Positions 9,948 through 55,506 of a DNA stretch of 64,000 bases are shown here, piece after piece. The stretch is taken from NCBI GenBank assembly GCA_951406725.2, contig OX597830.1:53320001-53384000 (forward strand). The letters are read 5' to 3'. The position numbers and the translations under genes are program-made. The notes beneath the pieces were generated by a model. The model had not been told where the DNA came from and ran no database searches. It was given only the letters and a program-made list of their open reading frames with translations. The DNA is from Octopus vulgaris. Lineage: Eukaryota. Every line of letters begins with the position of its first letter. The first letter of the stretch is position 1.

Positions 9948-10996
9948 ATTTATATAAAAATTTATAAAAGAAGATGGAATGAACAGGCTTTCATCACCAA
10001 TCACGATTGTTTCTGTGCAATGGTAACAGTTGTTAGTTGCTGAGTTTTCCATATACTACTACATAAAATATATAAATAATCAAATATGATCCAGCAACAA
10101 CTATATACTGGCATATCATCAGGTGAGTGACTTTGATAGCACTACTGGATCAGATTCAGTTCCCTATCGTTTTATACCCCATAGTATTTTTAGCATTTTC
10201 TCTATACTGAGTAACTTTGAGATTCAAATAAACGTAAGTTATAAAAATCTCTCTATATATAAAGCTGAAGCTGTCTGTAAGGCAGGTTTGGTAGCCTTCA
10301 ACTAACACTATCTCCTCCGAGACCCTGTGGCGCAAGTTGACCAAAATTGAGAGTATGCTAGAAGAAGGCTTGCTCTTCCTTCCATAGAAGAAAAAAATTC
10401 AAATCAGACCATGTTAACACCAAAAATTATTTACATCAAAAAGGTGCTTTTTTTCTATGAAAATCTCTATTTTTTACGATTTTTTTACTGCTGTGTCGCC
10501 ATTTTTCGGTGTATTTCAACCAGAAAAATGTTCACTTAAAGAGAATAACAAGCTACATAATGCAAAATTTTTACTTTTCAAAAATTCCAATTCTAAAGGG
10601 TCGAAACAAACCCGAGGAATGCTGAGCGATACTGCTAGTACCAAATAAAGTAATGACAGTAAAAAATTTTAAATATATAATTTGAAAAATTAGCTAAAAA
10701 TATGAAATTTATATTTCTAATATTTTATTGCCATTACTTTATTTGGTATTTTTACGACTTATGCCTATTCAAATCTATAAGTTGCTTAGTAGAGAAAGAA
10801 TACTAAAAATACAATGGAGGTATAAAACAATGAGAAACTGAACATGATCCAGCAGTGCTATCAAAGCCACTCACCTTATGACATATGGAAAACTCAGTAA
10901 CTAACAGCTGTTAGCATTGCACAGAAACAATTGTTGTGATTTGTGATTAAAGCCTGTTCATTCCATCTTGTTTTATAAATTTATAAATATATAAAT
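9948..10996. repeat. Large diverged inverted repeat (arms ~300 bp) interrupted by a Helitron
   Basis: 9948-10247 plus 10639-10683 is the reverse complement of ~10705-10996 (e.g. gatggaatgaacaggcttt / aaagcctgttcattccatc). Confidence 0.85.
10248..10638 (+). mobile_element. Non-autonomous Helitron (391 bp)
   Basis: Starts TC(tc)tatatataaag, ends ...gatactgCTAG, sits between A and T with no TSD; removing it restores the palindrome arm. Confidence 0.8.
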
Positions 10997-12986
10997 CACA
11001 CACATACACACACAGACAGACACTCATCATCAGCCTTATTTAAAGTCCACTTTTCCATGCTTGTACGGGTCAAATAGAATTTGCTGAGGCAGATTTTCTG
11101 TAGCTAGATGCCCTTCCTGTCATCAACCCTCACCTGTTTCCAAGTAAATTAATATTTCCCATGGCCAGACATGTTTTCCATGAAAGACTGGAAATGAACA
11201 TCGCTTGTATGATGGTGATACTCATTTACAATCATCAGTTGATGTCATAAGGGTACACATGAACACACACACACACACATCCGCTTCTTTCAGTTTTCAT
11301 CTACTAAATCTACTCACAAGGCCTTGGTCAGCCCAGAAGAGACTTTCTCAAGGTACCATGGAGTGGAAATGAACCCAAGACCACAGGAATGGGAAGCAAG
11401 CTTCTTAACCACACAGCCATGCCTGCATCTGTAGGCATACTGTGTGATTGCCTCTGAGCAAATATTTTGGAAGTCAAACATTTGTACAATTAATATTCAC
11501 TCCACTCTTCCTTACATTGATTCCATTTTTGAGTTTTAATCTTTTTGGATGCTGTGAATTACACACACATTATATGAATCCTTGTATTGCCCTAGCTCAG
11601 CTCTTATTCAGCAACCCTATAGTAGTCCAGCCACAACCATCCCATCTTTTTTTAATATATATATTAAGGATAACATTGGGTTTAGTTCCCCTTTCAAAAC
11701 TGTAGAGTGTAATTCTAAGGAAATTTTGCTGTTATTTCTAGCATAATGAGCGAATATCTTCTGATATTCATTTCCAAATTAGATTAAATTTCATTTTTGA
11801 CTCATCCATCATGTAATCCTCTCCCTCTCTCTAGCACACTCCTCTCCCCCCTCTCTCTCTGCAGCACACTCCTCCCCCTTGCACTCATCTACTCACTTTC
11901 CAAATTATGTCCTTCCTCCTGTCTTACCCCCTTCGTACTTTCACTTTATGTACCCCTCCCCTAATATATTTCCTCAACCGAATTTTTTCCGAATCTAAAT
12001 TGAAAATAGAATAAAAGAAAGGAAAGAAGAAAATAAAAATAACTCTTTCTTCCCAGTTGCCGAAATATTATATTACACACATTAATAATATAATACATTC
12101 ATACATATATTTCTCCATACACACTAGTTGCTTTTGAAAACGCTCAAAGACCCAAATACTCGGAGAACTACTACTACAGCATACATTTGATACAACCACA
12201 CACACACGTATATACATACATACACACATATATTTATCCACATTCATATTATGTGTATACACACACACACACAAATACACGGGGAGGACCCAAAAGACAG
12301 AGTCAATGATTAAAAATGATCAGGGATACTAAAACACAAACAGAAAAACCTACAATACATTTAAGTATGTGTGTGTGTGTGCGGGGGGTGGGGGCAGTTG
12401 TCATGGTCGGTGATCATAGTTGCGCTTGCACAGGGTTAAATACAAACTGCTATAGACAACAGCTAAGCACTTCGCCAACCATGTCATCGCTCTACATGTT
12501 CTCAACTCCAGACGGTCAAGCCCGCAGCCATATCCACCAGACACAACTAACTACACACCGTAAGTTCTTACACGAGGGCCTCACCCACCCTAAAAAAAAA
12601 AAAACAGGAGACAGAAACCGTCTCAATAGAAATGTGGGTATTTAACCTCAATAGCTTAAGATAATTGGCATTTGACAAAGGACAACGAAAATGAATGTGT
12701 ATGCGTGTGTTTAAGAATATACACACACACACACACACCTCCTACCCCGTTTCAACCCTCTCTCCTTTCTATGTCAATAAAAATCAACAGTTTTGCAGTG
12801 TGTATATGTGTACACACACACACACACACACACACAAGGATAACTGTTGTTTCGGTAATTAACTGTTAACAACAACAGAAAATATTAATTCTAAAGAACA
12901 AAGAATGGATGGATGTAAATATCTGCATCAAATCTTTGTATAGAAATATGAATGTTTAGCAAGTGCTTTTTTGACGTTGTTATTGA

Positions 12987-13026
<40 letters not shown>

Positions 13027-13277
13027 ACACACACGCAGCCTGCATTCCTACCCACTGTCGATAAATTTTGCCCTCCTACAGGTGAACGGATTCGGAGTCA
13101 TTCCTTATCCTGTGAAACTGACTTACAAATACCACATACAATAGTATGTACAACTACTACGATATCTATCTATCTATCTATCTATCACACACACACAATA
13201 CGGATGTGGATAGGAGCTGGTTTCTAACAAAGAAACGAAGCACCATCACTGGAATTTGGATAACAACAACGATAGTC

Positions 13278-13316
<39 letters not shown>

Positions 13317-51300: not shown

Positions 51301-53968
51301 ATTATTATTCCGCTGAGGTTGACTTTGCCGTTTATCCTTTCAGGGTTGATAAAATAAGTACCAGTTGAGTACTGAGGTCGATTTATAATCAACTAGCCAC
51401 TCTCCCAAAATTACAGCCCTTGTGCTTTTAGTAGAAAGGATTATCATTATTGAGAACATAGGTTTAAGAGAAATTGTAAAACATCACACAAAATTCCTAG
51501 TGATGTTTACTTATGATCTTTTACATTCTGATTTCAAATCCCACTACCAATCAAGTCCTGGAACCAACAGTATAGACTAAATCCCACTCTCAAAAATTGC
51601 TGACCTATTACTTAAATCAGTAACTATTAAAGGTAGTGAACTGGCAATGTGTTGGTAAGAATGCTTTGCGGTATTTGTTCCAGCTATTTATATTCTGTGT
51701 TCAAATCCCACTGAGATCAGTTTTGTCTTTCATTCCTCTGGGGTTTGATGTAACAAAGTACCTGTCTAGGAATTGGTGTAATTGATTAGCAGCAACTCTT
51801 AAAATTGCTGGCTTTGTGCCAAAATCTGAAACATTATGATTTTCATTCTTTTTTATATAAAATAATAATAAATGACATCTCTCGTCTCCCCACCCTGTGA
51901 GGTGGTGAGCTAGCATGATCATTAGCCAGCCCCAGACAAAATGCTTGGTGGCATTTCTTCCAGCTTTTTACTCTCAAATTCAGATTCCATTGAGGTCAAC
52001 TTTGCCATTCATCCTTTCAGAGTTAATGAAATAAGGACCAGTTGAACAACGGGGTCAATGTAATCAACCAGCTCCTCTCAATGTCGAATTGTTACCACGT
52101 CACTGGGTTTCTGTTATTTCTATATTTTTGGTCCTTATTTTTAGACAAGACATTTCATTCTACATAACTTGCCCCCCTCCCCCCTGTACCCATCTAAACA
52201 CGCACACTCAAACACTTAGTTATACATCTTATGGCTTTAGACGTGTAAAGAAAATCTTCACATGGATTTTGATTCACCAAGGGACAAAACAAGGAATTAA
52301 TTGATGGTAAAAGCGAGTAGCGACTCAGAAACGTATTGAGACAAAAAAAATAACAGCTGTTGTTAACCTCCTCTTAAATGTTCCTCCTATTCCCTTCCCA
52401 GACCTGGTCCCATCTGTTGAAAAACTTGGCTGTGTGCTCCTATTGGAAGGCGGCGAGCTGGCAGAAACGTTAGCTCGCCGGGCGAAATGCTTAGCAGTAT
52501 TTTGTCTGCCATTACGTTCTGGGTTCAAATTCCGCCAAGGTTGACTTTGCCTTTCATCCTTTTGGGGTCGATAAATTAAGTACCAGTTACACACTGGGGG
52601 GGGGGGGTCGATGAAATCGACTTAATCCGTTTGTCTGTCCTTGTTTGTCCCCTTGTGGGTAGTAAAGAAACATATATCTAGTAGTGTATGTATGTATGCA
52701 ACAAAAGAGGTGTATGGTGTTGAGCTGGTGACAGGGTGCTCCAGAGAGGGAAAAGTACAGAATATATGTTCAGAGTTATGTAATATAAGTATAAGTGATG
52801 ATTGGCTGGTTTTTAGTTAAATACATTTGATTCATGCCTGGCCTAACGTGGGTAGTGTGCGTTCGGTAAAGTTCATGTCTAGAGGAAGTACGTTTAATAT
52901 TTTGTTGTGTTTATGAAGTATGTTTGTTCTTAAAGATTTTCATTTGTTAATTTGACTGTGATTTTAATTGTGATAAAGATGGAAGATATTAATGTGATGA
53001 TTTCTGTGGAAATTTTTGAAAGTTTTTCTTGTAAATGTGGTTCTTCATTATGATGGATGACTAGTTTCTATGACAGTGATGTTGTGAGGCATGTAGATGT
53101 AAATCTAGAGGGAATATATGTGATTCATTCTAGTTTCCCATTTTGGATACCATTTGTGATAACTTGGATTTATGTAATTTGATGTTCAAGTGTAAAACAA
53201 TTAGGGACCAACCAGAGAGCCCATATGTATCCTTGTACAAGATGTGTGATGCTTTATATATGTTGTAACAAATGTCTTTTGGATGTTGTGAGTGCCTTGG
53301 CTTTGTAAATCTCCAATTCTCCCTTTCAAGCAGACTCTTGCATACCCCCCATCTAAAAATGCTGCTTCTGGAATAAAAGAAGGGTACACGTCCTAACTTA
53401 AGACTTTGGGAATGCCGTACACTGTACTGGAAAAAAAAAACTGTTATAAATTCTGTTGGGGCAGAAAGTTTGTTCAGGTATCAATATTCTTTCAATCACA
53501 ATTATCAAATCTTATAATATATCAAATGCACAAATTCCTTACACTGAGACCATTGTTCTTGTGAGAAAATGACAGAAACATTGTCCTGTCTTTTTACCTT
53601 TATATACTCAAATTGGTATTTATTTGTTCTAATGTGATTCACTAAAACGATTTGCCAAATTTATGTCAAATTTCTGTATCTTTAATATTGATATGAAAAT
53701 GAATAAAAATAATTTACAAACAATTGTTGTTCTGTGTTGATATGGAGTGTGGCTACACACACAAGCATCATACATCTCTGTTTGTATAACATATTTATGT
53801 GTTTTATATATTTCAACACCATTTGCCTTATGGCTCACTGACATCATTTGGTGCTGGTGTTTATACATGCAAAGTCTGGAGAGAATTTGTTCTTCAAGAC
53901 AAAAATCCTACAGCAATGCATGCCTTACTTTTTTTCCAGGATAGATAATGTTTGTGCAATATAAAATT

Positions 53969-54246
53969 AATTGTAGTATGGAAGGTGTTTATAAACCATT
54001 TAAGAAACACACAAAAACCGTTAGATTCACTTCAACTTTTAAATTTAATTTGTCAAAATATTTTCGTCGCCATGAGACCGCGACCTGTTCACTGACAAAA
54101 GATGCAGCACGAAGTTTTGTCAGTGAACAGACTGCGGTCTCAAAGCAACGAAAATATTTTGACAAATTAAATTTAAATGTTGAAGTGAATCTAACGGTTT
54201 TTGTGTGTTTCTTAAATGGCTTATAAACACCTTCCATGCTGCAATT
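53969..54246. mobile_element. Fold-back palindrome, putative Penelope-like inverted pseudo-LTR
   Basis: ~130-bp near-identical inverted arms around a 14-nt spacer (the mirror ORFs 53948+ and 53989- reflect this); hammerhead motif in each arm. Confidence 0.65.
54049..54099 (-). ncRNA. Minimal type I hammerhead ribozyme motif, G3-C8 core variant
   Basis: tttgtca-GTGAACA-G-GTCGC(ggtctcatg)GCGAC-GAAA-atatt-t-tgacaaa: 7-bp stem I, 5-bp stem II, palindromic AATATT helix III. Mirror copy with mutated stem II at 54116-54166 (+). Confidence 0.6.
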
Positions 54247-55506
54247 GTTTTCGTTCCAGCACACGATCTCAGATCAGGTCAGAGAAAAATAATTTTTATC
54301 AAATGATTCTGAGTACTTGGTGGAAACTAAATTAACACCTGCACACAAACAAAACATCATTGAGCAAAAAATGTATACAAGACTATTCTGGAGCTGTGCC
54401 TTCTTGTGAGCATTAAGCCAAGGGTAAATAAGACTGCCAGTGCAGGAAAGACATGCAAGTTTTCTCATTTTAGGTAGCGAATGCTATGTAAAAGCTTTCT
54501 GTTCTGAAGTGCTGAACTAAAAAAAAAAAAAAAAAAGGCAAAAACAAGCAAGTTCTGGAAGTTGGCATTCCAGTCACACTATCAGTTGTAACACTGATTG
54601 TAGCTTCAAGACTAGCCAGATAAATGTCACCATGTATTCACTTAAATACAGCCCTATGGTCATGGAGCAAAAGAGTGTAGTTGACTCCTGATCTTTGATC
54701 AGTTAAATGGATTTTAGTGTTATCTAAACACTGTTGCTAGACATTTCTATTGCCAGTCCACTCCACAGCCTGTGTCTTTGTCTGAGATGTCACTATACAC
54801 CACAGGCCTTGTATCTACAAACATAAAAAGTGCTGACTTGAGCAACTATTATTTCAATCAACTGAATTTTTTCTGGAGACTGTTTTTGATAAATTGTGTG
54901 AATTCTTGTTCAACCTATATCAGCATGGGTAAAACCCAACTAACATTGGTTTCAAATTCTGGCACAAAGCCAGCAATTTCGGGAGTAGGACTTGACTCAA
55001 TTAAATCGACTCCAGTGCTCAACTGGTACTTATTTTATCAATCTCAAAAGGGGGAAAGGCAAAGTTGATCACAGTGGCATTTGAACTCAGATCGTAAAGA
55101 TGGATGAAATGCTGCTAAGCATTTTTCTGGGCATGCTAACCATTCTGCCATCTCACTGCCTTAAACCCAACTAATATTAATTTCTAATATTAGCACAAGG
55201 ACACAAACTTTGAGAGAGAGCAGAGACAATTAAACTGAGACTGTCAACCCTAACCTGGAAGAACAAAAGGCAAAGACAATCAAGATGGATAAATAAATAA
55301 AAACTTCAAGGAGTTTATTTTTTTCATTGAGTCTAGTGGAGATCGATCTCTTCTAGAGTAAAACAATGATGATGATGATAATGGTGATGATAGTGACAAA
55401 AATGACAAATGTGCAATAAAAAGAATATAGGCATGTCCCCCTCCCCTCTATAAATCAGTTTATTAATACCAGAAACATAATCCCAATAAGGCCGCCTAAC
55501 TTTCCT

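Follow-up and report, generated by a model that had tools for sequence, protein, structure and literature searches.

Hammerhead ribozymes within the pseudo-long terminal repeats (pLTRs) of Penelope-like elements (PLEs) have already been published, as have their occurrence in opposite-strand pairs, an extra base between positions 9 and 10.1, and a variant core with U3:A8 (PMC4209133). Natural U3:A8 hammerheads were also reported by Perreault et al. (2011, PMC3088659), a study that mentions U4C cores as well. Ground-state structures of minimal hammerheads lack the C3-G8 pair, which is observed once the active fold has formed (PMC3884650), and PLE hammerheads have been described as weak in vitro, dispensable for insertion in one purified system, and possible passengers. 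In an anole PLE, the hammerhead was reported to cut only with protein, with single mutants at position 3 or 8 being dead and the double mutant partly rescued; the same source describes two 3' sites for priming that define the PLE tail and a protein that nicks AT-rich DNA (PMC11167929). Here, we analyzed a set of fold-back repeats carrying hammerhead motifs in a 64,000-nucleotide stretch of the 2.8-Gb genome of an animal, Octopus vulgaris (assembly GCA_951406725.2, contig OX597830.1, positions 53,320,001 to 53,384,000 of the forward strand; hereafter, the window). The fold-backs are 5'-truncated 3' ends (pLTRs) of PLE families joined to inverted copies of themselves, and all four Watson-Crick pairs at core positions 3 and 8 (C:G, U:A, G:C, and A:U) occur in this one genome.

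Fold-backs in the window as Penelope-like 3' ends

An earlier note, made from the letters of the window, had reported six short fold-backs, most of them within (TA)n, and a larger inverted repeat at 9.95-11.0 kb. All are present at those positions, with four of the six short ones in (TA)n (20.9, 22.17, 22.6, and 40.6 kb) and the other two, at 35.4 and 53.97 kb, in AT-rich DNA that is not (TA)n. The cores listed there also match the sequence, namely CTGAAGA at 22777 (+), TTGAAAA at 22288 (-) and 35524 (-), GTGAACA at 54092 (-) and 54123 (+), and CTGATGA at 17304 (+), and each of them indeed reads outward, away from the symmetry centre. Counting one further core at 22308 (+), two of the seven motif copies in the window are intact hammerheads, those at 54092 (-) and 22777 (+).

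The first of these belongs to family A, whose fold-back consists of an inverted arm (53969..54099, -), which is a 5'-truncated PLE 3' end that stops at the short 3' terminus, and a sense arm with a partial 3' tail (54100..54281, +). The inverted arm carries a minimal type I hammerhead (54049..54099, -) with a 7-bp stem I, the core GUGAACA (G3:C8), an extra G, a 5-bp stem II, GAAA, and the palindromic helix III AAUAUU, and a cut is predicted after UUU, between 54056 and 54055. The hammerhead in the sense arm (54116-54166, core at 54123) lacks G10.1 and one more stem II pair. In family B, the inverted arm with its tail (22598..22754, -) is truncated within the hammerhead core, and the sense arm (22760..22856, +), a Hydra-like PLE 3' end, holds the second intact hammerhead (22772-22832), with the core CUGAAGA (C3:G8), the helix III ACUC-G-GAGU, and a predicted cut after GUU at 22827. 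This core had been grouped among the unusual ones, which was mistaken, as it is a canonical CUGANGA. The extra purine said to precede stem II is found in the families at 54.1, 22.3/35.5, and 17.3 kb but not in the 22777 motif, where a C is instead bulged out of stem II on its 3' side.

Family C contributes two fold-backs. In the minus arm of the first (22170..22300), the hammerhead (22255-22291) has the core UUGAAAA (U3:A8) and a 3-bp stem I and is nearly intact, with a single stem II mismatch and a G-U pair in helix III; the plus arm with its tail (22296..22489) has its core at 22308, with damaged stems. The second (35398..35642) has a minus-arm hammerhead (35491-35527, U3:A8) in which G12 is changed to A and a plus arm made up of the 3' end and tail only, and it is flanked on either side by the 12-bp duplication TTATTATTTATT.

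A repeat search of the window was dominated by microsatellites, and the window contains no informative open reading frame (ORF), nor do the fold-back copies themselves. Rfam returned no hammerhead among the 150 of 333 window matches listed and, for 13 loci, none that reached the gathering score, which indicates that its library does not catch these minimal motifs.

Elsewhere in the genome, families A, B, and C (those at 54.1, 22.8, and 22.3/35.5 kb) are the 3' ends of elements encoding a reverse transcriptase (RT) and a GIY-YIG endonuclease, which bears out the Penelope-like reading of the earlier note; the linked ORFs that it proposed to look for were found upstream of all three. For family A, 950 pattern matches extend upstream into a microsatellite-rich untranslated region and an ORF, and a same-strand GIY-YIG ORF ends ~1 kb upstream in 5 of 30 upstream-extending loci. 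One of its loci (L327) has a 530-aa frame with the RT motif YVDD, a CX3CxxC linker, and GIY-YIG (Pfam GIY-YIG E 9e-5). The frame at the family C locus L329 (665 aa) gave weak RVT_1 and GIY_YIG_2 matches, and that at the family B locus L330 (717 aa) gave no Pfam match, with Hydra motifs present. In samples of 20 loci each, one of which was the query's own, family B follows the endonuclease of a different ORF at 15 loci, with an inverted placement at 1 more, and family C follows an ORF related to that of family A at 10, with an inverted placement at 3 more. The family A and family C proteins are 51% identical. Among metagenomes, relatives of the family A protein amounted to one weak locus, which was not used.

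Copy numbers are high, with first-look candidates numbering 1,925 for A, 1,145 for B, 2,551 for C, 1,375 for D, 2,672 for F, 3,419 for G, and 470 for J. The copies also share marks of insertion. Family A matches have two end points that lie ~55 nt from each other (used by 30 and 18 of the 56 matches), and two alternative 3' termini were seen by eye in families B, C, and G. An inverted second copy of variable length accompanies 11 of 30 family A loci, the remaining 19 having no inverted arm, and tandem or inverted copies forming pLTRs with 5' truncation were found at, among others, loci L323, L325, L326, L328, L331, and L332. Target duplications of 10-15 bp were recognized by eye at four family A loci (L007, L013, L024, and L029) and of 12 bp at two window copies (17.1 and 35.4 kb), and many copies lie in (TA)n.

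We also considered that family A might be a non-autonomous element of 200 nt whose 5' end is fixed, none of 30 loci extending beyond it, an idea that the 950 upstream-extending matches ruled out, and that family G might be a short element of the same kind, which its longer copies ruled out. Head-to-tail family A units were found as one match only, with (TA)n in between. At locus L322, a 3.4-kb tandem unit has a Neptune-like end nested together with families A and G.

The 3:8 pair across families

The type I layout NUGANNA...GAAA...UH, with helices I and II and a dimeric helix III, was recovered, with pairing in 96% of cells in family A. Counted over distinct copies in the loci collected, from baited samples, the pair at positions 3 and 8 is G:C in 72 of 77 copies of family A, C:G in 62 of 65 of family B, and U:A in 58 of 62 of family C. 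It is likewise C:G in families D (50 of 52), F (16 of 18), and I (23 of 27), and in two families found outside the window it is U:A (family E, 37 of 40) and A:U (family H, 33 of 34). A second G3:C8 family, K, with 24 exact matches, also lies outside the window and belongs to a distant clade. Canonical C3/G8 is kept in B, D, F, G, and I, and another Watson-Crick pair takes its place in A, C, E, H, and K. Three small U3:A8 families (M, N, and O, with 5, 6, and 3 copies) came from a loose regular expression with no stem test, whose other 3:8 combinations we did not count as hammerheads. All eight families in which the pair is other than C:G (A, C, E, H, K, M, N, and O) are Watson-Crick. The covariation of positions 3 and 8 claimed in the earlier note holds between families and extends to A:U.

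Across the genome, the exact patterns of A, C, and H matched 5,475, 2,203, and 378 times, respectively, and the reversed controls gave 0. The relaxed search that had been suggested, with positions 3 and 8 left free, gave 12 matches, 11 of them Watson-Crick, across 600 kb of unbaited genome; across 12 dinucleotide shuffles, the same descriptor averaged 0.75 matches per replicate (0.17 Watson-Crick and 0.58 not), so the motifs are not due to chance. In a 1.66-Mb scan with this descriptor, the majority pair was Watson-Crick in 10 of 10 multi-copy clusters. In addition, contigs from four runs on four organisms showed no core change in family A at a level of at least 8%, and the changes seen inside its motif were confined to loop II or the stems.

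The families outside the window are tied to coding elements as well. Family E follows an 850-aa RT/GIY-YIG ORF and is probably young, with many long open frames. Family H (L343-L371), which has a 2-bp stem II, lies behind an endonuclease related to that of E, and 37 of 48 listed matches span from the endonuclease end through the motif. In family K (L418-L437), stem I is 10 bp long and includes one mismatch, helix III is ACCGGU, and the site is GUA; an endonuclease lies upstream in 8 of 20 loci. An endonuclease tree, built with no reference elements, joined A and C as a clade (100/100) whose long branch is separate from K, E, and H. Given the distance between the A and C clade and K, G3:C8 is present in two distant lineages.

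Several further features of the cores were observed. In family E (L121-L150), an additional U lies between stem I and position 3, and stem II is 2 bp long. U4C cores (CCGAAGA and CCGACGA) are common in a subfamily of B with intact 717-aa ORFs and in family I (loci L153, L155, L330-L332; L017, L142, L271, L310). Position 17 is U in A and A in K, both with G3, and C in H, with A3; a G3:C8 hammerhead variant has been reported to be less active with C17. A rule that position 3 never pairs with position 17 was nevertheless dropped, as family M has U3 with A17 and two G3 families are weak support.

Folding and competing explanations

Starting from the directly observed family membership, RT/GIY-YIG linkage, two 3' termini, target duplications, and fixed 3:8 pair of each family, we consider it likely that the repeats are truncated PLE 3' ends with inverted self-copies in which each family carries a predicted minimal hammerhead, and that the 3:8 pair varies and stays Watson-Crick through selection for the active fold in the RNA of the parent element. 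The 3:8 set across families suggests that the motifs were selected to cut, since this pair forms only in the active ribozyme. From published PLE work, the element protein would nick AT-rich DNA, reverse transcription would start at one of two sites near the end of the pLTR, and early termination followed by a second, inverted copy would give the fold-back. In tandem pLTR-ORF-pLTR transcripts, two motifs could pair through the palindromic helix III and would then be cut slowly after the NUH triplet, probably with the help of the element protein.

Folding predictions are in part favorable to such dimers. For H and F, a double hammerhead coincides with the predicted dimer optimum, and for E it lies within 1 kcal/mol of that optimum. 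The fold-backs of the window are a different matter: as whole units they are predicted to form hairpins of -123 to -185 kcal/mol, which would bury the ribozyme, and these copies are probably relics, or dead ends. Outward-facing arms are already known as a product of PLE insertion and would hide the ribozymes rather than activate them.

A number of observations weigh against selection for cutting. As bare motifs, the double hammerheads of A, B, C, and D are not the lowest-energy dimers (-27.2 versus an optimum of -31.3 kcal/mol for A and -5.4 versus -15.6 kcal/mol for C), so that help from protein or context is likely needed, and stem I of family C has only 3 bp. In family D, 31 tallied copies, from a sample baited with the deleted window copy, share a 3-nt deletion at the cleavage site, yet the lineage multiplied. 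Within families, compensatory change is almost absent, leaving the evidence to lie between families; the one C-G/U-A switch in family A (7 of 77) is at CpG sites that have more single changes. The families, moreover, are not independent draws, few switches lie behind the pattern, and the Neptune-like part of the endonuclease tree (E, H, and K) is poorly resolved. Finally, in the purified anole system, insertion in vitro was unaffected by ribozyme mutants, and that study reported no RNA sequencing reads ending at the cut site (PMC11167929).

These points bear on two other accounts of the motifs. One holds that they are kept as pLTR structures for protein binding or priming rather than for cutting, with a protein recognizing the folded core and hence the 3:8 pair. 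The anole results and the spread of the deleted family D lineage speak for it, as do published descriptions of minimal PLE hammerheads as poor cutters (PMC4209133). However, the NUH triplet, G12, G10.1-C11.1, and palindromic helix III are all retained together with the 3:8 pair, which is itself part of the active conformation (PMC3884650), and we regard this account as unlikely. The other explains the core changes as neutral decay in founder copies, Watson-Crick by accident. The independent switches do number only a handful, G:C to A:U and C:G to U:A each take just two transitions, and among 1,150 copies of family A, 3 are doubly changed, 2 of them to A:U via two transitions. Against this, eight of eight non-C:G families are Watson-Crick, the changes from U:A to G:C and from U:A to A:U would each require two transversions, and the rest of the motif stays intact despite the core changes, which makes decay a very improbable explanation. 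The short inverted repeats sitting in AT-rich DNA could also suggest miniature inverted-repeat transposable elements (MITEs), that is, DNA transposons with terminal inverted repeats, which the earlier note had named as an outcome that would overturn its reading. Arms of variable length that are missing altogether at 19 of 30 family A loci, two termini, and duplications of 10-15 bp, not of fixed length, are instead the published marks of PLE insertion (PMC8557442; PMC11167929) and exclude MITEs; for A, B, and C, the sequences also run upstream into RT/GIY-YIG ORFs, and we give this possibility practically no weight.

That a tertiary pair specific to the active fold has remained Watson-Crick across several double changes counts as evidence that catalysis has been under selection, and matched natural variants with C:G, U:A, G:C, and A:U are now at hand for assay. 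The prediction that CUGANGA searches would miss these families is correct for those with U:A and G:C but not for the CTGAAGA family; PLE families scored as hammerhead-less in such surveys may therefore merit re-examination.

Other repeats of the window and comparison with known systems

The remaining units of the window are of several kinds. In the family D copy (17127..17388, +), an inverted tail fragment and the 3' half of a head resembling a tRNA are accompanied by a trinucleotide tract and by a PLE-like 3' end whose C3:G8 hammerhead (core at 17304) lacks 3 nt at the cleavage site, and the copy is flanked by a 12-bp duplication (17115-17126 and 17389-17400). In other loci (L095-L120), the family shows a tRNA-like head with a fixed start and A and B boxes, an (AAT)n/(AAC)n tract, a PLE-type hammerhead end, and a tail, and ARAGORN called a relaxed tRNA in 5 of 12 loci. 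It looks like a short interspersed element, likely a tRNA-headed unit moved by a PLE. Family F is represented by a fold-back in (TA)n (20903..21115) truncated so that the C3:G8 (U4C) hammerhead of the family falls outside it; elsewhere (L213-L230, L334, and L335), it forms head-to-tail units of ~480 nt with a CCGANGA type I hammerhead, in which the loop II hairpin measures 54 nt and the palindromic helix III 12 nt. Judging by its 95-99% identity and layout, family F is young and retrozyme-like, and of the families to which the earlier note might apply that term, it fits this one, in its copies beyond the window, and not A, B, or C. The family G fold-back, also in (TA)n (40638..40935), breaks off within loop II of a C3:G8 hammerhead of Hydra style and lacks the core as a result; longer copies have this hammerhead, one of them with an endonuclease fragment upstream.

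Family J is an old PLE-like fold-back (9948..10992) with copies 73-84% alike, a conserved CUGAUGA, and a left arm split by an unrelated repeat of ~390 nt (10250..10638, +) that has TC...CTAG ends, is present in several other loci, and may be Helitron-like. One copy pair of the family flanks a Hydra-like endonuclease end. In the window (9948-10245, minus) and at L373-L387, CUGAUGA lies in a long conserved hairpin with GAAAA ~85 nt downstream. No complete standard hammerhead could be fitted to family J, and its motif may be an atypical or decayed ribozyme. Away from the fold-backs, ~6 kb of (TACA)/(TA)-type microsatellite with a strong strand skew occupies 24800-30700, and an open stretch at 46896-47306 (-) resembles by eye a helicase fragment of PIF1 type and is probably a Helitron remnant.

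Among described systems, the metazoan PLE hammerheads of Cervera and de la Pena (2014, PMC4209133) resemble ours in lying in the pLTR, in having a palindromic helix III that is short or missing and one additional nucleotide between A9 and G10.1, and in occurring as thousands of scattered truncated copies and as opposite-strand pairs, theirs being 100-700 bp apart. The U3:A8 variant is common to both, with ~1,300 matches in Schistosoma mansoni PLEs. The list of 56 representative motifs in that study has C:G, two U:A, and one U-G, with no G3:C8, A3:U8, or cephalopod entry, whereas in octopus two lineages have a fixed G3:C8 pair and one lineage has a fixed A3:U8 pair. The protein of family B, ~717 aa long, has the RWK and CxCX5C motifs of the Hydra clade, to which Hydra-1_Obim belongs (Craig et al. 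2021, PMC8557442); (TA)n targets are likewise shared, and so, with Hydra-1_oBim in the same source, are a CUGAAGA hammerhead and a helix III palindrome around one base. By these motifs and by eye, family B appears to be another Hydra-clade family, with no difference of kind. Family G shares the Hydra-style U-U pair at 10.1/11.1. Families A, C, E, H, and K have the CX2-5CxxC linker and C-terminal GIY-YIG of the Nematis and Neptune clades, A and C resembling the published Nematis rows and E, H, and K the Neptune layout when compared by eye with the supplement of PMC8557442. The hammerhead table of that paper lists only C3:G8, and the Nematis/Neptune-like families with a readable core here (A, C, E, H, K, M, and O) are all non-C:G. 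With the animal non-LTR retrozymes (PMC7229834; bioRxiv 10.64898/2026.07.22.740005), family F shares head-to-tail units of ~480 nt and a type I hammerhead; unlike these tandem non-coding units, A, B, and C are ends of autonomous elements.

Natural G3:C8 and A3:U8 were not found in the literature searched, and figure-only variants, other surveys, or repeat databases may list such cores. We therefore hold only tentatively, and rate slightly to the doubtful side, the broader claim that these are the first natural G3:C8 and A3:U8 hammerheads, that G3:C8 arose twice, that four pairs in one genome amount to natural proof of selection for catalysis, and that whole PLE clades on slower cores have been missed by standard searches. 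What is new is narrow but clean, namely natural cores with G3:C8, in two families, and with A3:U8, which complete the four pairs in one genome. Engineered C3G/G8C double mutants (PMC11167929; reviewed in PMC8495972) and natural U3:A8 hammerheads (PMC3088659) show that alternative Watson-Crick 3:8 pairs keep partial activity; in the papers found, G3:C8 occurs only as a laboratory rescue, whereas in octopus thousands of copies carry it naturally as a fixed pair.

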